The position numbers and the translations under genes were made by a program. DNA of 64,000 bases, taken from assembly GCF_000026545.1 (NCBI RefSeq), contig NC_011601.1; one strand, written 5' to 3'. The notes below the pieces were generated by a model. That model searched no databases. It had not been told where the DNA came from and saw only the letters and a program-made list of their open reading frames with translations. This document shows positions 40,829-50,375 of the stretch, in pieces. Numbering within the stretch: position 1 is the first letter of the stretch; every line of letters starts with the position of its first letter. Source of the stretch: Escherichia coli O127:H6 str. E2348/69. GTDB lineage: Bacteria > Pseudomonadota > Gammaproteobacteria > Enterobacterales > Enterobacteriaceae.

Positions 40829-41900
40829 AGATATTGCAATTGCCTCCGGATAAGTAAGGGGAGATTGCACTATGCAAATGCAGCATCTGATGGTTGGCTA
40901 TCCTAAGTACTACCAAACGGCCGATTATGCGTTGAGGCTTTCAGTGATGGCTGATATAGCAACAATGAGAATGAAGGCTCTGCACTTCTGGGATAAACAC
41001 GGTATTTCTGCAGCTTCTGAAGCCTTTGGCGTGTCCTGCCGCACGCTTTACTGGTGGCGTCAGTTACTGAACAAGGAAGGACCTGAGGGGCTAATCCCGC
41101 ACAGTAAGGCACCTCTGGTGCGACGAAAAAAACACTGGCATCCCGATGTGCTGAAAGAGATTCGACGCCTCAGGACAGAGCTGCCGAACCTCGGTAAAGA
41201 GCAGATTTTTGTTCGCCTGAAGCCCTGGTGCGAACAGCGCTATCTGGCCTGTCCGAGTGTTTCCACCATCGGCAGAATGATCGCTGCCGCACATGATAAA
41301 ATGCGGATGATACCTGTGCGTCTGGGATCGCGGGGGAAGGCACTGCTTGTCAAAAAGCGGTCTGCCAAACCCCGCAGGCCAAAGCACTACCGCCCGGTAA
41401 AGACAGGTGAGCTCATTGGGATGGACGCCATTGAGCTCAGAATGGGCGAACTGCGTCGCTATGTCATCACCATGATCGACGAATGCAGCAATTACGCGCT
41501 GGCGCTGGCTGTGCCGTCACTCAACAGTGATATCGTCAATCACTTCTTCAGCCGCGCAGCCCGGTTGTTCCCGGTCGGTATCAGCCAGATAATCACAGAT
41601 AACGGAAAAGAGTTCCTGGGAAACTTCGACAAAACGCTGCAGGAAGCCGCTATCAAACACCTCTGGACCTATCCCTACACGCCAAAAATGAACGCTATCT
41701 GTGAACGTTTTAACCGGACGTTAAGAGAGCAGTTTATTGAATTTAATGAGATTTTACTCTTTGAAGATCTGGCGCTATTTAACCAGAAGCTGGCGGAATA
41801 TCTGGTGCTGTATAACAGCAAAAGACCCCACAAGGCGCTCGCACTAATGACGCCCGTGGAATATATTTTAAAAGAGAATAAAAATTGCAATATGTGGTGG
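40829..41900 (+). mobile_element. Approximate extent of an IS481-family-like insertion sequence; boundaries tentative
   Basis: Single DDE (rve) transposase ORF. Candidate terminal inverted repeats 'atattgcaatt' at the left (about 40829) and its reverse complement within 'aaaaattgcaatatg' at about 41886-41900. No clean target-site duplication was found. Confidence 0.4.
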
Positions 41901-42146
41901 ACCCATACAATGTCTTGCCTCCTTGCAAAGAAGAGACTAACATCCGAATTGCTTAGGTTCGAACGTAGGCCTCAGGTTGATAGAAATATCGCCTGGGGCT
42001 TTTGTCCATCTGGAACCTCGCGAATGCTTAACGCCAGACAGCCTCAAGCACCCAACGCCATTCTATACCTGTTAATTTTCCCTGCGATGTTCACCTTTAA
42101 ATGCCGGAATGCTGCTCGCAAAATAAAAACGCCCCATCATTTCTGA
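40872..42146 (+). CDS. DDE-type (rve/integrase core) transposase with N-terminal HTH, IS481-family-like
   Basis: HTH (ISAASEAFGVSCRTLYWWRQ), DDE residues in GMDAIE / ITDNGKEF / ERFNRTLRE, and C-terminal KRPHKALALMTPVEY. The last ~80 codons of the 424-aa ORF may be read-through into flanking DNA. Confidence 0.7.
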   Translation: MQMQHLMVGYPKYYQTADYALRLSVMADIATMRMKALHFWDKHGISAASEAFGVSCRTLYWWRQLLNKEGPEGLIPHSKAPLVRRKKHWHPDVLKEIRRLRTELPNLGKEQIFVRLKPWCEQRYLACPSVSTIGRMIAAAHDKMRMIPVRLGSRGKALLVKKRSAKPRRPKHYRPVKTGELIGMDAIELRMGELRRYVITMIDECSNYALALAVPSLNSDIVNHFFSRAARLFPVGISQIITDNGKEFLGNFDKTLQEAAIKHLWTYPYTPKMNAICERFNRTLREQFIEFNEILLFEDLALFNQKLAEYLVLYNSKRPHKALALMTPVEYILKENKNCNMWWTHTMSCLLAKKRLTSELLRFERRPQVDRNIAWGFCPSGTSRMLNARQPQAPNAILYLLIFPAMFTFKCRNAARKIKTPHHF

Positions 42147-42174: not shown

Positions 42175-42909
42175 TTACCCTTCGTGTAATCCACATTCCC
42201 TTTTTAAGCCAAAGAAACGCGTTTCTTCTTCCGCCATGCCGGGTTCCCATTTACGGGTTGTATGGGTATCGCCCACCGATAAATATCCTTCATCCCATAA
42301 TGGGTGATATTTCAGGCCATGTTTTTGCAGGTACTGATAAATAGTTCGGTTATCCCAGTCGATAATCGGCAGCACTTTAAATACGCCACGCTGAATTGCC
42401 AGCACCGGTAAATTGGCGCGACTGCCGGATTGTTCACGGCGCAGGCCAGCAAACCAGGTTTGCGCATTCAGTTCTTTCAGCGCCCGGTTCATCGGTTCGA
42501 CTTTGTTGATGTCATTGTACTTTTCAATGCCTTCAACGCCCTGCTCCCACAGTTTGCCGTAGCGTGCTTCCTGCCAGGCGGCGCTTTCGGTAGCACGATA
42601 CACTTTCAGGTTGAGCTTGAGTTTGTCCGTTAACTCGTCAATAAAGCGGTAGGTTTCCGGGAACAGATAGCCGGTATCGGTGAGGATCACTGGAATATCC
42701 GGGCGAATCTGATTCACCAGATGCAGACTCACCGCCGCCTGAATGCCAAAGCTGGAAGAAAGTACATATTCACCGGGCAGATTATCCAGCGCCCAGGCTA
42801 CGCGGCCTTCAGCGTCCAGTTTTTCCAGTTGGGCGTTAGTTTCCGCCAGCGCCAGAATCCGGTCTACCTTTGGCAGTTCGTTCAGGGCGTTTAGATCGAG
42901 TTTGGACAT
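42175..42909 (-). CDS. cysH: Phosphoadenosine phosphosulfate reductase (244 aa)
   Basis: Conserved [21 protein letters not shown] start; the longer six-frame ORF runs through a REP element and was rejected. Confidence 0.95.
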
Positions 42910-42930
42910 AAGTTCCTCACTGTTTGCCTT

Positions 42931-42966
42931 GCCTGATGCAACGCTTACACGTCTTATCAGGCCTAC
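42931..42966. repeat. REP (repetitive extragenic palindromic) element between cysI and cysH
   Basis: gcctgatgcaacgcttacacgtcttatcaggcctac matches the E. coli REP consensus. Confidence 0.7.
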
Positions 42967-42982
42967 AAGACCAGGCTGATGG

Positions 42983-44695
42983 TTAATCCCACAAATCGCG
43001 CGCCGGATCGAGCACCGGGCGAATGATGCCCGCACGCACCGTAAAGTCGCCGAAGCCTTCACCCACTTCGCGCTCTTTCGCCCAGCGCCCTATCAGTTCA
43101 TCAAGCGACGCCAGGATTTCCGACTCGGTGATGTTTTCTTTATACATCCGTGGGATACGTGTCCCAATGCGGTTGCCGCCAAGATGCAGGTTGTAGCGAC
43201 CCGGCGCTTTCCCCACCAGACCCACTTCCGCCAGCATCGCGCGACCACAACCGTTCGGGCAGCCTGTTACACGCATCACGATATGCTCATCGCTGACACC
43301 ATGTTTCGCCATTAAATTATCGATGTTGTCGATAAAAGACGGCAGGAAACGCTCCGCTTCCGCCATCGCCAGCGGGCAAGTCGGGAATGACACGCAGGCC
43401 ATTGAGTTTTCACGCTGCGGCGTGACGGCATTCATTAACCCGCTCTCTTTGGCGATCTTCTCGATCTTCGCTTTCTCGCTTTCCGGCACGCCGGCGATGA
43501 TCAGATTCTGGTTCGCCGTAATGCGGAAATCACCTTTGTGGATCTTCGCGATCTCCAGCAGGCCAGTTTTCAGCGGGCGCCCCGGATAATCAAGAATTCG
43601 ACCATTTTCGATAAACAGCGTCAGGTGCCAGTTATCATCAATGCCCTTAACCCAGCCAATACGATCGCCGCGTCCGGTAAACTCATACGGGCGAATCGGC
43701 TCGAATTTGATCCCCGCGCGACGCTCAACTTCCGCTTTAAACGTCTCAACCCCCACGCGCTCCAGCGTGTATTTGGTTTTGGCATTTTTACGATCGGTTC
43801 GGTTACCCCAGTCACGCTGAGTCGTCACGACGGCTTCTGCCACCGCCAGCGTATGCTCCAGCGGCAGATAACCAAACTCACTCGCCGTGCGGGCGTAGGT
43901 TTTCTTGTTGCCGTGCTCGATGGAAAGCCCACCGCCCACCAGCAGGTTAAAGCCCACCAGCTTGCCGTTTTCGGCGATCGCCACGAAGTTCATGTCGTTG
44001 GCGTGCAGATCGATATCGTTCTGCGGCGGGATCACTACCGTGGTTTTGAACTTACGCGGCAAATAAGTCTGACCGAGGATCGGTTCTTCATCGGTGGTGG
44101 CGACTTTTTCCTGATCGAGCCAGATCTCCGCATACGCGCGGGTACGCGGCAGCAGATGTTCAGAAATTTTCTTCGCCCATTCATATGCTTCCGCATGCAG
44201 CTGCGACTCGTAAGGGTTCGAGGTGCAGAGTACGTTACGGTTCATGTCGTTGGCGGTCGCCAGCGCATCAAGACCGACCGAGTGCAGCATCTGATGCACC
44301 GGTTTGACGTTCTTTTTCAGAATGCCGTGGAACTGGAATGTCTGGCGGTTGGTCAGGCGAATGCTGCCATAGATGGTGTTTTCACCGGCAAATTTGTCGA
44401 TCGCCTGCCACTGTTTAGTGGTAATCACCCCACCCGGCAGACGACAGCGAAGCAGCATCGCGTGACGTGGTTCCAGCTTCTGTTCAGCACGTTCGGCGCG
44501 GATGTCGCGGTCATCCTGCTGATACATGCCGTGGAAGCGGATCAACAGGAAGTTATCACCCTTAAAGCCGCCGGTCAGACCGTCATTTAAATCTTCCGCA
44601 ATGGTGCCGCGCAGGTAGTTGCTTTCAAGCTTCATGCGCTCGGCGTCTGTCAGTTTTCCTTCGACCACTAAAGGTCCTGGATGTTTTTCGCTCAT
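42983..44695 (-). CDS. cysI: Sulfite reductase hemoprotein beta subunit
   Basis: 570 aa, siroheme/4Fe-4S Cys motifs. Confidence 0.95.
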
Positions 44696-46494
44696 TAGTA
44701 GACATCTCGCTGATAACGGCGCTCTACGCGCAGCTCACTTAAAAATTCATCCGCCGCTTCGGTGTCCATGCCACCAAATTCGGCAATCACTTCCAGAAGT
44801 GCCTGCTCAACGTCTTTCGCCATGCGATTAGCGTCGCCGCAGACATAAATGTGGGCACCGTCATTGATCCAGCGCCACAGCTCTGCGCCCTGTTCGCGCA
44901 GTTTGTCTTGTACGTAAATTTTTTCTTTTTGATCGCGCGACCAGGCGAGATCGATGCGCGTCAGCACGCCTTCTTTGACGTAACGCTGCCATTCCACCTG
45001 GTAGAGGAAATCTTCCGTAAAGTGTGGGTTGCCAAAGAATAGCCAGTTTTTACCCGGCGCTTCGTCGGCAGCACGCTGCTGCATAAAGGCACGGAACGGC
45101 GCGATGCCGGTGCCAGGGCCAATCATGATCACCGGGGTTTCCGGATTGGTTGGCAGGCGGAAGTTGTCGTTATGTTCGATAAAGACGCGGACTTCACCCT
45201 CTTCTTCCACACGATCCGCGAGGAAGCTGGAGGCACCACCGGCACGGGCGCGGCCTTCCACGTCGCAACGCACCACACCAACGGTAACGTGCACTTCGTT
45301 CTCGACTTCCGCCTGCGAGGAGGCGATGGAATACAGGCGCGGGGTCAGCGGGCGCAGCAGATTAATCAGCGCTTCGGCATCCAGTTGCGCCGGAGAGAAA
45401 CGCACCATGTCGACAATCGGCGTCGTCGCGGCGTAATGCTGTAATTTCGCTTTATCGCCCACCAGCGGCAGCAGCGTTTCGCTGCGGGTAAGCGTGGCAT
45501 AGTTCTCAACAATGTTGGCGGTGTTAACGGTCAGTTCGAAGTGCCACTGTAGCGCTTCGTTCAGAGGCAACGTTTTGCCCTCGACGGTGACAGGTTCATC
45601 GCCTTTCAGCCACAGCAGTTCGACAAGTTCTTTCACCAGTGCCGGATCGTTCTGATACCAGACGCCCAGCGCGTCACCCGGCTGGTAACGCAGGCCAGAG
45701 TCACCTAAGTCAATTTCAATGTGACGAACGTCTTTTTCAGAGTTACGCCCGGTAATTTTCTGGTTAACAGAGAGGCTCGCCACCAGCGGCGCGTCTTTGC
45801 TATACGGGCTGGTGTGGATTTCATTTACCGTGCCAGTAGCGACGGATTGCGAAGGTGCCGCGACAGGCGCACGCGATTTAAGCGCATCAACCACGCGGGC
45901 GCGCCACTCGCTGGCAGCAGCCTGGTATTCAACATCGGCATCGACACGGTCGAGCAGGCGTTCACCGCCCAGTTCCGCCAGCTTACTGTCAAAATCTTTC
46001 CCGGACTGGCAGAAAAATTCATAAGAGCTATCGCCGAGGCTAAACACGGCAAACGCGGTGTTTTCCAGCTTTGACGCTTTTTTGGAGAACAGGAACTTAT
46101 GCAGCGCGACGGCTTCTTCCGGCGGTTCCCCTTCCCCTTGCGTTGACGTCACCACGATAAGCAGTTTTTCGCTGGCGATTTGTTTGAATTTATAGTCACC
46201 CGCGTTCACCAGCTTAACGTTCAGTTTTGCCGCTAATAAATCATCGCGTAATGCTTCAGCAACCCGGCGCGCATTGCCGGTTTGCGAGGCGGAGATAATA
46301 GTTATACCCGGCATTTCTGCGGCGGGCGCTGGCGTCGCTGCAAGCGCAGCAGGCTGCTGGTTGAGCACGCCCCAGAAATAGCCAGAAACCCAGGCAAGCA
46401 GGGTAGGAGTTAAATCGGTCGTGGCCGCCTGAAGGCGTGCCAGTTGCTCCGGGTTCAACGGAAGCAACGCGGAAGGTGGGACCTGTGTCGTCAT
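44695..46494 (-). CDS. cysJ: Sulfite reductase flavoprotein alpha subunit
   Basis: 599 aa, flavodoxin plus FNR-like domains. Confidence 0.95.
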
Positions 46495-46809
46495 GCGTTG
46501 TTATGTTCCAGTAAGCAAAGCTGTTTCTGCGCCCTGTCAGCGCCCATAAAACAGAAGAGAAGGTAAGGTTAACGGGGTGAACGGTGTGGATTAAAGACGG
46601 GATAGCGATAACTAATAACCAAATCGACTAACCTGTTTTAGCAATAGTCTTTAACAACAAAATAGATTAACCAACCCAATGAAAAACAAATGAATATTGC
46701 CCATCAATAAGATAAATCAGCGATTTTGCGCAACAAAGTCGTTTTAGATAATGCGAAAAAACAGCCTTTCCGGTACTCTACGGCGGTTTTATCGTCATGT
46801 AGAGAAATT

Positions 46810-47175
46810 ATGATGTCCACCACGTTATTTAAAGATTTCACCTTCGAAGCCGCTCACCGCTTGCCGCATGTCCCACAAGGGCATAAATGTGGTCGCCTGC
46901 ACGGGCATTCCTTTATGGTGCGACTGGAAATTACCGGGGAAGTCGATCCGCATACGGGCTGGATTATCGATTTCGCTGAACTGAAAGCGGCGTTTAAACC
47001 AACTTATGAGCGCCTCGATCACCATTATCTCAATGATATTCCAGGTCTGGAAAACCCAACCAGCGAAGTTTTAGCAAAATGGATTTGGGATCAGGTTAAA
47101 CCCGTTGTGCCGCTGTTAAGTGCGGTGATGGTAAAAGAAACCTGCACCGCAGGTTGTATCTATCGCGGCGAATGA
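46810..47175 (+). CDS. queD: 6-carboxy-5,6,7,8-tetrahydropterin synthase QueD (121 aa)
   Basis: [21 protein letters not shown]..., PTPS family; start set at the conserved ATG. Confidence 0.93.
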
Positions 47176-47252
47176 TAAGAGTGTGTCGGCGGTCAATTTC
47201 CCTTAAGTAACGCTATGTTAGGGTGTTGTGTTCTGGATATCTGGGGCATGAC

Positions 47253-48524
47253 ATGGAAGACGACTGCGACATTATTATTATCGGTGCCGGAATTGCTGGC
47301 ACCGCTTGCGCGTTACGCTGCGCGCGAGCGGGTTTATCCGTTTTGTTACTGGAACGAGCGGAGATTCCCGGCAGCAAAAATCTTTCCGGCGGGCGGCTAT
47401 ACACTCATGCGCTCGCGGAACTCCTCCCGCAATTTCACCTGACCGCGCCTCTTGAACGACGCATCACTCACGAAAGTCTTTCTCTGTTAACGCAAGATGG
47501 CGCAACGACGTTTTCCAGCTTACAGCCCGGCGGTGAATCCTGGAGTGTATTACGTGCACGATTCGATCCGTGGCTGGTTGCCGAAGCCGAAAAAGAAGGT
47601 GTCGAATGCATCCCCGGTGCGACGGTAGATGCACTGTATGAAGAAAACGGCAGGGTGTGTGGTGTCATTTGTGGTGACGATATTCTTCGCGCCCGTTATG
47701 TGGTGCTGGCAGAAGGTGCCAACAGCGTCCTGGCGGAACGCCACGGGTTAGTGACTCGTCCTGCTGGCGAAGCGATGGCATTGGGGATCAAAGAAGCGCT
47801 GGCGCTGGAACCATCCGCTATTGAAGAACGTTTTCATCTGGAGAATAACGAAGGCGCAGCGTTGCTGTTCAGCGGCGGAATCTGTGATGACTTACCCGGC
47901 GGCGCATTTCTTTATACTAATCAACAAACGCTCTCGTTAGGGATTGTTTGCCCGCTCTCCTCCCTTACGCAAAGTCGTGTTCCGGCAAGCGAGCTGCTGG
48001 CTCGCTTTAAAACGCATCCGGCAGTGCGCCCGCTTATCAAAAACACGGAATCACTGGAGTATGGTGCGCATCTGGTGCCAGAAGGTGGCCTGCGCAGTAT
48101 GCCGGTGCAATACGCCGGTAACGGCTGGCTGCTGGTGGGCGATGCGTTGCGCAGTTGCGTCAATACCGGAATTTCCGTGCGCGGTATGGATATGGCGCTA
48201 ACTGGCGCGCAGGCGGCGGCACAAACGCTGATAAGCGCCTGCCAGCACCGCGAGCCGCAAAATCTGTTTCCGCTTTATCATCACAACGTAGAGCGCAGCC
48301 TGCTGTGGGATGTTCTACAGCGTTATCAGCATGTTCCGGCGCTTTTGCAACGCCCTGGCTGGTATCGGGTGTGGCCTGGGTTAATGCAGGATATTTCCCG
48401 TGATTTATGGGATCAGGGGAATACACCTGTTCCACCGCTGCGCCAGTTGCTCTGGCGTCATTTACGTCGTCACGGCCTGTGGCATCTGACGGGCGATGTT
48501 ATCAGGAGTCTGCGATGTCTGTAG
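47253..48524 (+). CDS. ygcN: FixC-like FAD-dependent oxidoreductase (ETF-quinone oxidoreductase homologue) YgcN
   Basis: 423 aa, N-terminal FAD motif IIIGAGIAG. Confidence 0.9.
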   Translation: MEDDCDIIIIGAGIAGTACALRCARAGLSVLLLERAEIPGSKNLSGGRLYTHALAELLPQFHLTAPLERRITHESLSLLTQDGATTFSSLQPGGESWSVLRARFDPWLVAEAEKEGVECIPGATVDALYEENGRVCGVICGDDILRARYVVLAEGANSVLAERHGLVTRPAGEAMALGIKEALALEPSAIEERFHLENNEGAALLFSGGICDDLPGGAFLYTNQQTLSLGIVCPLSSLTQSRVPASELLARFKTHPAVRPLIKNTESLEYGAHLVPEGGLRSMPVQYAGNGWLLVGDALRSCVNTGISVRGMDMALTGAQAAAQTLISACQHREPQNLFPLYHHNVERSLLWDVLQRYQHVPALLQRPGWYRVWPGLMQDISRDLWDQGNTPVPPLRQLLWRHLRRHGLWHLTGDVIRSLRCL

Positions 48525-48775
48525 CCCGTAATCTCTGGCGCGCTGCCGATGCGCCGCACATTGTTCCGGCTGACTCCGTTGAGCGCCAGACGGCACAACG
48601 GTTGATTAACGCCTGTCCAGCAGGTCTTTTTTCGCTCACACCTGAAGGTGGCTTACGTGTTGATTATCACGGCTGCCTGGAGTGTGGCGCCTGCCGTTTG
48701 CTGTGCGACGAATCAACACTACAACAGTGGCGCTATCCGCCTTCCGGATTCGGCATCACCTACCGCTTTGGATAA
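48515..48775 (+). CDS. ygcO: FixX-like ferredoxin YgcO (86 aa)
   Basis: Small ferredoxin-like protein overlapping the ygcN 3' end, the typical fixCX arrangement. Confidence 0.88.
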   Translation: MSVARNLWRAADAPHIVPADSVERQTAQRLINACPAGLFSLTPEGGLRVDYHGCLECGACRLLCDESTLQQWRYPPSGFGITYRFG

Positions 48776-48791
48776 ATAATAAGGATAATTT

Positions 48792-49367
48792 ATGCCCCTC
48801 TTACACCTGCTCCGCCAGAATCCGGTGATTGCTGCCGTTAAAGATAATGCCAGCCTGCAACTGGCAATCGACTCTGAATGCCAGTTTATTTCCGTGTTGT
48901 ACGGCAATATCTGCACCATTAGTAATATCGTTAAAAAGATTAAGAACGCCGGGAAATATGCTTTTATTCATGTTGATTTGCTGGAAGGCGCGTCAAATAA
49001 AGAAGTGGTGATTCAGTTTTTGAAACTGGTGACCGAGGCGGACGGAATTATCAGTACCAAAGCCTCAATGCTGAAAGCAGCAAGAGCGGAAGGTTTTTTC
49101 TGTATTCATCGACTGTTTATTGTTGATTCGATTTCGTTTCACAACATTGATAAGCAAGTTGCGCAATCGAATCCGGATTGTATTGAGATCCTGCCAGGCT
49201 GCATGCCTAAAGTGCTGGGCTGGGTGACGGACAAAATCCGCCAACCGCTGATTGCTGGCGGGCTGGTGTGCGATGAAGAAGATGCGCGTAATGCGATTAA
49301 CGCGGGTGTTGTGGCGCTTTCCACCACGAATACTGGGGTCTGGACGTTAGCGAAAAAATTGCTTTGA
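48792..49367 (+). CDS. ygcP: GlpP-family (glycerol-3-phosphate-responsive-type) antiterminator-like protein YgcP
   Basis: 191 aa, GlpP/G3P_antiterm family by sequence resemblance. Confidence 0.88.
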   Translation: MPLLHLLRQNPVIAAVKDNASLQLAIDSECQFISVLYGNICTISNIVKKIKNAGKYAFIHVDLLEGASNKEVVIQFLKLVTEADGIISTKASMLKAARAEGFFCIHRLFIVDSISFHNIDKQVAQSNPDCIEILPGCMPKVLGWVTDKIRQPLIAGGLVCDEEDARNAINAGVVALSTTNTGVWTLAKKLL

Positions 49368-49402
49368 CGGGATAATCGTAACAAGTTGAATTTGGTGTGA
49401 TT

Positions 49403-49470
49403 TGTAGGCTGCACGCCACATCCGACATCCAGCGCCTGATGCGACGCTTGACGCGTCTTATCAGGCCTAC
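49403..49470. repeat. BIME-like pair of REP elements between ygcP and ygcQ
   Basis: gtaggctgcacgccacatccgacatcc... followed by a canonical REP gcctgatgcgacgcttgacgcgtcttatcaggcctac in the opposite orientation. Confidence 0.7.
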
Positions 49471-49514
49471 AAGTCCCCAGCCCAGAACCATCGGCAGGAT
49501 CATCCGGCAGCACG

Positions 49515-50375
49515 TTATTGGCAATCTGCGTGAATGTTTGTCACCAGTGCCTCCAGCACCACTTTCCAGTCATCAATCACGCCAACATCTGCCTGTGAAA
49601 ATACCGCTGCACTGGCGTCATGATTAATCGCCACCACAAACTTGCTATTGCGTACGCCCGCCATTAACGCTGCTGCGCCGGAAGCGCCAACAACAATACA
49701 CACCTCAGGTGCCAGCAGATGTCCGGAAATACCAATCACTTTTTCGGCATCAACGCCACCGTTCATCACTCGTGCCCGACTGTAGCCCACTTCGGCTCCC
49801 ATCTTTTCTGCCAGCATAGCGATTTCCTGGTTATCTGCCTCTCCGCCCTGCCCCACCACCAGCACCCGTCTGGCCTCAGCTAATGGGTCACGGGTAACAT
49901 TTTTCAGGTTTTCTATGCTGATAAGCCAGTCTGGAAGCGCGCCGGGGACAATGTTCAGTTGCTGCATCCCAGAGGGCAACGTGGCGTTTTTATCTGCTCC
50001 CGCCTGACGTGCCAGCGAAAGGCATAGCGGGCGTTTTTCTGTTTGCAGCGTCGCCGTTAGCGCATTTCCCCAGTGGGATTTGCGCACGCTTACGGTTGGA
50101 ATATCTAACGAAGTCACCTGGCAGATGCTTGCACCATGTAAACGCCAGGCCAGCCGGGTCGACAGTTCATCGCCAAACGTTCCCGGCGGAAAGAGAACAA
50201 CGTCCGCAGGCGTTCGTTGCCACTGTTCCACCAGCACATCCAGCACCTGTTCCGCAACCATCGGCTGTGGTTCTATTTGCCAATGTGCCAGGGTACAACC
50301 GCTGAAATCCTGCGCCGCCAGCCAGCTCGCTATTGCGGCATGTTCCTGATTTATTGTCACAATTGCGATATTCAT
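49515..50375 (-). CDS. ygcQ: Electron transfer flavoprotein alpha-subunit homologue (FixB-like) YgcQ
   Basis: 286 aa, ETF alpha family. Confidence 0.9.
   Translation of the reverse strand: MNIAIVTINQEHAAIASWLAAQDFSGCTLAHWQIEPQPMVAEQVLDVLVEQWQRTPADVVLFPPGTFGDELSTRLAWRLHGASICQVTSLDIPTVSVRKSHWGNALTATLQTEKRPLCLSLARQAGADKNATLPSGMQQLNIVPGALPDWLISIENLKNVTRDPLAEARRVLVVGQGGEADNQEIAMLAEKMGAEVGYSRARVMNGGVDAEKVIGISGHLLAPEVCIVVGASGAAALMAGVRNSKFVVAINHDASAAVFSQADVGVIDDWKVVLEALVTNIHADCQ

Follow-up and report, generated by a model that had tools for sequence, protein, structure and literature searches.

We have studied two intergenic spacers, cysI–cysH and ygcP–ygcQ, within a stretch of 64,000 nucleotides (nt) of DNA from Escherichia coli O127:H6 strain E2348/69, which we call the window. 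Each spacer contains one intact repetitive extragenic palindromic (REP) element of the z2 class, termed here REP-A and REP-B respectively. We hold with considerable confidence that both sites belong to the E. coli REP family, with a single z2 element lying in cysJIH and the decayed remains of a bacterial interspersed mosaic element (BIME) of the BIME-2 kind lying between ygcP and ygcQ. In this interpretation the elements are products of a REP-associated tyrosine transposase (RAYT) that was active in the past, and would play a role at the 3′ ends of messages. Descriptions of REPs, BIMEs, the y, z1 and z2 classes and the targeting of REPs by the insertion sequence (IS) IS1397 go back to the 1980s and 1990s. 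The identity of these elements is therefore already known, and REP201, at the ygcP–ygcQ site, stands in the K-12 annotation.

An E. coli REP is defined as an imperfect palindrome with a GTAG sequence and an AA-GC bulge, of length 35, 29 or 37 nt (PMC8266576), and consensus sequences have been published for the y and z2 classes (PMC2817692, Table 1). In the Bachellier/Gilson nomenclature, as summarized in PMC3333891, a BIME-2 is built of alternating y and z2 units that are inversely oriented and joined by a short S linker, often in tandem arrays. Our z2 reference copies, read from REP325 of K-12, are consistent with the published consensus sequences.

The cysI–cysH spacer is 73 nt in length on the minus strand (42910-42982, from the window sequence and the gene annotation), bounded by the stop codon of cysI (42983-42985) and the ATG of cysH (42907-42909). 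REP-A occupies positions 42930-42966 on the minus strand. Its sequence in the window is TGCCTGATGCAACGCTTACACGTCTTATCAGGCCTAC, and on the sense strand of cysJIH it reads GTAGGCCTGATAAGACGTGTAAGCGTTGCATCAGGCA, i.e., the form with GTAG first. The GTAG begins 16 nt past the cysI stop codon, and the element ends 20 nt ahead of the cysH ATG. REP-A is identical to the canonical z2 copy of K-12 REP325 at 34 of 37 positions. The three differences are all C-to-T changes, two of which turn G-C into G-U pairs in the upper stem.

A search for inverted repeats using a seed of 6 nt missed REP-A, and the element was therefore analyzed by folding. As RNA it forms a hairpin of −19.6 kcal/mol (z = −3.9), more stable than any obtained from 200 shuffled sequences. 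The stem contains a 2x2 internal loop, in which AA is opposite GC. The original prediction, made from the sequence alone, placed a single REP between cysI and cysH at 42931-42966, and this is borne out at 42930-42966 by the z2 match, the GTAG and the hairpin. The Shine-Dalgarno sequence of cysH (GAGGAA) lies downstream of the hairpin. Sequestration of this sequence by REP-A is unsupported, for in the fold of a 131 nt segment the REP hairpin persists and the ribosome-binding site is free in the centroid structure.

REP-B (49434-49470) also has GTAG first on the minus strand, and was identified from its fold, its z2 score and its copy number. The arms of 14 nt are 86% complementary, and folding gave −22.4 and −23.3 kcal/mol (z = −4.9 and −4.6), again with a 2x2 internal loop of AA opposite GC. 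Its local alignment score to z2, 67 out of a possible 74, is the highest in the window, and between ygcP and ygcQ, which are convergent, no other palindrome is able to fold. It differs from the z2 class in having one extra loop base, and a C for T at the position before GCCTGATG.

Both elements have a GTAG 5′ foot, with minus-strand sequences that begin GTAGGCCTGATAAG at 42966 and 49470. They share the 14-mer CTTATCMGGCCTAC, which is exact at 42953-42966 and 49457-49470; when up to two mismatches are allowed there are three matches in the window, compared with 0.48 expected. The pattern search with the REP consensus that had been suggested as a check thus finds both z2 elements. A 42 nt query of REP-B gave 40 or more matches per genome in 5107 records, and no annotated feature underlies the matches listed. 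This multiplicity indicates a high-copy family, and not a local palindrome. REP-A and REP-B are both intergenic by annotation. The z2 class, as seen in REP325 and the BIMEs flanking rayT, is characterized by a palindrome of 37-38 nt, the GTAG foot, the AA/GC bulge, an extragenic location after stop codons and high copy number. REP-A and REP-B share all of these, and neither departs from the family.

The units that flank REP-B are in a different state. On its left is a relic of a y-class REP on the plus strand (GTAGGCTGCACGCCACATCCGACA, 49404-49427), in which alignment to intact y REPs of outgroups reveals an internal deletion of 11 nt. It is connected head-to-head to REP-B by the S linker (49428-49433), found by strain comparison to be TCCAGC here and TTCAGC in K-12 and E. 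albertii. On the right, the tail-to-tail linker of the BIME-2 unit (AAGTCCCCAGCCCAGAACC, 49471-49489), whose alignment shows it to be conserved with E. albertii, leads to a second y-class relic on the plus strand (ATCGGCAGGATCATCCGGCA, 49490-49509). Compared with E. albertii this has lost 15 nt internally, and it ends 5 nt before the stop codon of ygcQ (49515-49517). Its GTAG has become ATCG in E2348/69, while K-12 retains GTAG.

The original prediction at this site was a head-to-head pair of canonical REPs at 49403-49470. The right-hand member is indeed canonical, being REP-B, with its z2 score of 67 and z values of −4.6 and −4.9, but the left-hand member is not. Aligned to the REP consensus (as 49403-49428) it gave no match above chance; the relic itself has a score of 20 with the y consensus, a value equalled at about 20 further positions of the 64 kb window. 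Nor does it fold (z = −0.9 and −1.2), the 11 nt deletion having removed the 5′ arm. We therefore rejected it as a bona fide REP on the basis of its own sequence, and replaced that assignment with one by homology to outgroups. It is only by such homology that it is seen to be a REP: intact y REPs are present there in E. albertii and in Escherichia sp. MOD1-EC7003, and the latter has one intact y REP exactly at the position of the left element.

In E. albertii the ygcP–ygcQ spacer contains an array of five units, (y-z2)x2-y, and the E. coli sequence aligns with it unit for unit. The E. coli spacer has the order and orientations y–S–z2–linker–y of a BIME-2. The pair had been called BIME-like, and this is correct for the arrangement but not for intactness, and the right relic at 49490-49509 had gone unreported. 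Neither y element now has the character of its class, the left scoring at chance and failing to fold, and the two bearing their 11 and 15 nt deletions with respect to E. albertii. Tandem copies are also lacking, E. coli having a single y–z2–y where E. albertii has (y-z2)x2-y. With its y units deleted and unfoldable, and without tandem amplification, this is a relic and not a working BIME-2. Judged from its sequence, then, the ygcP–ygcQ spacer is a decayed y–z2–y BIME-2, and about 40% of the “BIME” is non-functional relic sequence.

When did this structure arise and decay? The left truncation is the same in K-12 and five diverse E. coli strains, and the right relic has equal length in all seven sequences; decay therefore predates the diversification of E. 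coli. The z2 element is foldable in every E. coli sampled, while the units on either side of it have decayed. Of the non-Escherichia species in which both genes are present, 12 show no REP, and the aligned ends of ygcP and ygcQ are −5 to 37 nt apart. A thirteenth, C. braakii, has a gap of 77 nt containing an independent y REP. It follows that the ygcP–ygcQ BIME arose within Escherichia.

Comparison with the REP elements of K-12, another check that had been suggested, supports both sites. The second coincides with REP201, a convergent REP of ygcP/ygcQ at 2894809-2894875 in the supplement to a preprint. By gap-free alignment this corresponds to 49405-49471 of the window, and the strains differ by few substitutions. 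K-12 also carries an orthologous copy of the cysI–cysH REP. Its label is probably REP200, from the numbering of REP199 and REP201 on either side. The RefSeq annotation of K-12 lists no repeat features in this stretch, and the REP names are consequently taken from the preprint supplement. The same supplement gives 2894960-2895053 of K-12 (approximately 49556-49649 of the window on the minus strand, in the 3′ part of ygcQ) as a region of NusG-dependent Rho termination in vitro. It lies 85 nt from REP201, and may bear on how transcription of ygcQ ends.

The REPs had been proposed as potential targets for insertion sequences, and for REP-B this is confirmed by other genomes. Insertion of IS1397 is reported to be specific to REPs of E. 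coli (PMC1525189). Matches to the ygcP–ygcQ region were incomplete in about 600 genomes. In strain 28Eco12 an IS3-family element of 1432 bp lies within the REP-B loop, with a duplication of TTGA on either side. An IS1397 copy has been published for this strain at 1214273..1215704 with TCAA/TCAA (PMC6963479), coordinates equal to those that we found. Of 5426 complete genomes, 290 have the exact REP–IS junction in the orthologous z2 loop, and the gene is annotated as an IS1397-family transposase. Since IS1397 is found in the loop of the REP-B orthologue, the window holds an empty target site, the TTGA at 49448-49451 as located from the IS junctions in other genomes. About 5% of complete E. coli genomes have an IS1397 at this position, and REP-B is a true hot spot for the element. 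The REP-B site resembles the known IS1397 targets in the palindromic units of BIMEs in that the loop of its orthologue is used and TTGA duplicated; it differs in being empty in this window. The search run for REP-A revealed no IS insertion there.

The further proposal of potential RAYT targets stands for the DNA motifs, but targeting by a RAYT in this strain is doubtful. The substrate of TnpA-REP is a single-stranded REP that has the GTAG and the bulge, with CT cleavage sites in its vicinity. On the minus strand both z2 REPs carry the GTAG and the bulge, putative features for the binding of TnpA-REP. The minus strand of REP-A also carries TGCC|TGAT and GGCC|TACA, the published cleavage motifs of TnpA-REP, and that of REP-B has GGCC|TACA together with CGCC|TGAT, a one-base variant with C for T at position −4 of the type I site. 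However, E2348/69 has hicB and hicA between yafL and the lfhA pseudogene (NZ_LT827011.1, 254790-255417), where K-12 has rayT. We detected rayT in 3575 of 5426 complete E. coli genomes, and its replacement by hicAB is one of two routes of loss that have been described (PMC3333891). With hicAB at the fixed rayT locus, present-day action of a RAYT here is unlikely, and the REPs of E2348/69 are probably immobile.

We propose that the REPs were deposited by past activity of RAYT (TnpA-REP). The BIME-2 of the ygcP–ygcQ spacer formed within Escherichia, and now reads y(del11) – S linker – z2 – linker – y(del15), with a stem arm missing from each y unit since before the diversification of E. coli. By analogy with other REPs, the z2 hairpins would probably act once transcribed as local elements of 3′ untranslated or intercistronic regions. 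They would impede 3′-to-5′ exonucleases and protect the 3′ ends of mRNA, and would also give partial attenuation assisted by Rho. REP-A would then favor the message of cysJI relative to that of cysH, and the convergent transcripts of ygcP and ygcQ, with no intrinsic terminator between them, would both be capped by REP-B. Scanning 42700-43200 revealed no sigma-70-like promoter and no hairpin-plus-T terminator, and the ygcP–ygcQ spacer likewise contained no intrinsic terminator and no sigma-70-like promoter. The intact z2 hairpins are therefore the only strong structures in the spacers.

REP325, in the yjdM–yjdN spacer, is built from the same y and z2 units, and like REP-A lies between tandem genes of one operon. 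It is reported to be a partially Rho-dependent terminator and a stabilizer of the upstream mRNA; the same study found expression biased to the upstream gene in 146 REP-containing tandem gene pairs, and higher expression in 207 convergent pairs (preprint 10.64898/2026.03.23.713779). REP325 contains 12 hairpins compared to one in REP-A, which would probably exert a lesser effect, if any. No paper tying cysJIH to a REP was found in the literature searched.

In order to set REP-A in its evolutionary context, CysH-anchored loci from 80 Enterobacteriaceae species were compared. The length of the cysI–cysH spacer ranges from 15 to 203 nt. It contains E. coli-type y, z1 or z2 REPs in 29 species, REPs of Klebsiella/Enterobacter type in 20 and palindromes of the form CCCTCTCC..GGGAGAGGG in 12. 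Other sequences are found in 11 species, and nine of these spacers fold at −17 kcal/mol or better; in the remaining eight species the spacer is a bare 15 nt with only a Shine-Dalgarno sequence. Overall, a strong palindrome is present in a spacer of 43-203 nt in 70 of the 80 species, drawn from at least three unrelated repeat families. The content differs between lineages of Escherichia, which have a single z2, z2-y-z2, z1-y-z2 or z1+y, and E. coli strain N96 has y+z1 instead of the usual single z2. The REP beside cysH, together with its 3′ flank AAGGCAAACAGTGAGGAACTT in the same orientation, is common to Escherichia, Salmonella, Citrobacter and Lelliottia.

This pattern could result from an insertion hot spot or from selection for a hairpin between the cistrons, and is the one mildly novel lead to come from the analysis. 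A stronger statement, which we offer only tentatively and consider doubtful, is that the cysI–cysH junction is a conserved hairpin slot, filled interchangeably by different repeat families, and not a place where a REP landed by chance. If that were so, a structured element would be kept by selection, for example to set the ratio of the messages for sulfite reductase (cysJI) and 3′-phosphoadenosine 5′-phosphosulfate reductase (cysH). On the question of whether selection acts on intercistronic hairpins, the comparison is a modest lead.

A number of points weigh against a role for the elements at mRNA 3′ ends. The RNA-level function of both REPs is extrapolated from other REPs, and the effects of those vary widely with large scatter, with no general effect on mRNA half-life genome-wide (preprint 10.64898/2026.03.23.713779). 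In REP-A, the G-U pairs that result from the C-to-T changes weaken the stem. The eight Enterobacteriaceae species with a 15 nt cysI–cysH spacer have no hairpin at all and evidently manage without it, so that the hairpin is not essential. At the other site both y units beside REP-B have decayed, which disfavors selection on the BIME as a whole.

These elements might then be neutral or selfish leftovers, REP copies put in place by RAYT-type activity that persist only because a small intergenic insertion does no harm, and without effect on the expression of cysJIH or ygcP/ygcQ. We think this rather unlikely, but it is the alternative that survives best. It would explain why, of the three units between ygcP and ygcQ, two are broken, with the breaks fixed across E. 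coli, why the REP content of both sites varies among close relatives, as in the y+z1 of N96, and why the cysI–cysH spacer of eight species lacks a hairpin; the weak and variable effects of REPs genome-wide (preprint 10.64898/2026.03.23.713779) point the same way. It accounts less well for the retention of orientation by the cysH-adjacent REP and its AAGGCAAACAGTGAGGAACTT flank across four genera, for a palindrome-bearing spacer of at least 43 nt in 70 of 80 species supplied by at least three unrelated families, and for the z2 of the ygcP–ygcQ spacer remaining foldable in all E. coli sampled while its neighbors decayed.

A role at the level of DNA, in which BIME-2 sites would be bound or cleaved by DNA gyrase or other nucleoid proteins rather than acting as RNA hairpins, is improbable. 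The literature attributes binding of gyrase, Pol I and IHF to BIMEs, and the ygcP–ygcQ spacer is derived from a BIME-2. Yet each site has one intact palindrome, the y partners that define a BIME-2 are truncated, there is no long L linker such as carries the IHF site in BIME-1, and no role in chromosome compaction was found for REP325 (preprint 10.64898/2026.03.23.713779). It is very improbable indeed that these are ordinary Rho-independent terminators resembling REPs: they are G+C-rich stem-loops located after stop codons, but neither is followed by a T-tract (the post-hairpin bases are AAGGCAAAC and AAGTCCCC / GCTGGATG), the terminator scan of both spacers was empty, the family occurs at 40 or more places per genome, and REP-A is followed in its operon by cysH, so that transcription must cross the element. 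We therefore retain the reading of REP-derived elements, with one intact z2 hairpin per site that could act at the RNA level.

The genomic setting is that of E. coli E2348/69 (O127:H6), to which two 701 bp stretches around the two sites are 100% identical by BLAST. The genes annotated under these matches are cysI/cysH and ygcP/ygcQ, and the names originally given to them were right. The window corresponds to 1045057-1109056 of NZ_CP059840.2 in reverse complement, where the annotated genes agree with the open reading frames of the window; cysJ, cysI and cysH are on the minus strand, and ygcP (plus) and ygcQ (minus) are convergent. The REPs had been taken to support an origin in E. coli or a close relative. 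The origin is correct, but the identification comes from the BLAST match and not from the REPs. Since y and z1 REPs are also found in Salmonella, Citrobacter, Kosakonia and others, the presence of REPs alone points to enterobacteria and no further. The GC skew of the window (−0.011) is too weak for any argument about leading and lagging strands. An Rfam scan of the whole window matched only STnc490 and sok, with no REP family at either site, and is uninformative either way.

Two spuriously extended reading frames had been attributed to the REPs, and this is correct for one of them. The cysH reading frame at 42175-43062 (295 amino acids from a GTG start, compared to the annotated 244) crosses REP-A into the 3′ end of cysI, and its spurious 5′ extension of 51 codons is explained by REP-A. 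The other, at 49139-49513 (124 amino acids, minus strand), is a spurious antisense frame standing by itself, which is explained by the REPs of the ygcP–ygcQ BIME through which it runs; it extends no real gene.

Scanning the window for y, z1 and z2 sequences revealed two further weak relatives, at 29365-29400 and around 1196-1224. The first is a degenerate REP of y type (GCCGGATGCGACGC...CTTATCCAGCCCAC), with a tail of CCAC not CTAC and a weak hairpin (z about −1.3). It is flanked by a gene for a MarR-family regulator on the plus strand (28948-29355) and by rpoS on the minus strand (29475-30467), and closely precedes the terminator hairpin of rpoS (29429-29458); REP199 of K-12 is listed as a convergent REP near rpoS/ygbN. 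The second is half of a z1-type REP (AGGCGTAGCGCATCAGGCG) without its 5′ arm. This follows a hairpin-plus-T terminator at about 1163-1195, and lies between a gene for a HigA-like helix-turn-helix protein and a DUF4259 gene.

Other mobile and accessory sequences were noted in the window. A copy of IS200C is present at 1-572, with tnpA at about 114-572 and the Rfam match to STnc490 at 1-103; the transposases of the IS200/IS605 group are relatives of RAYT. In K-12, cas3 and the genes of the type I-E CRISPR-Cas system adjoin cysH; at this place the window has a truncated pseudogene for an IS integrase core (about 40872-41906). The Rfam match to sok (41904-42053), part of a hok/sok module with a Hok/Gef coding sequence, also stands in place of the cas3/CRISPR-Cas genes of K-12.

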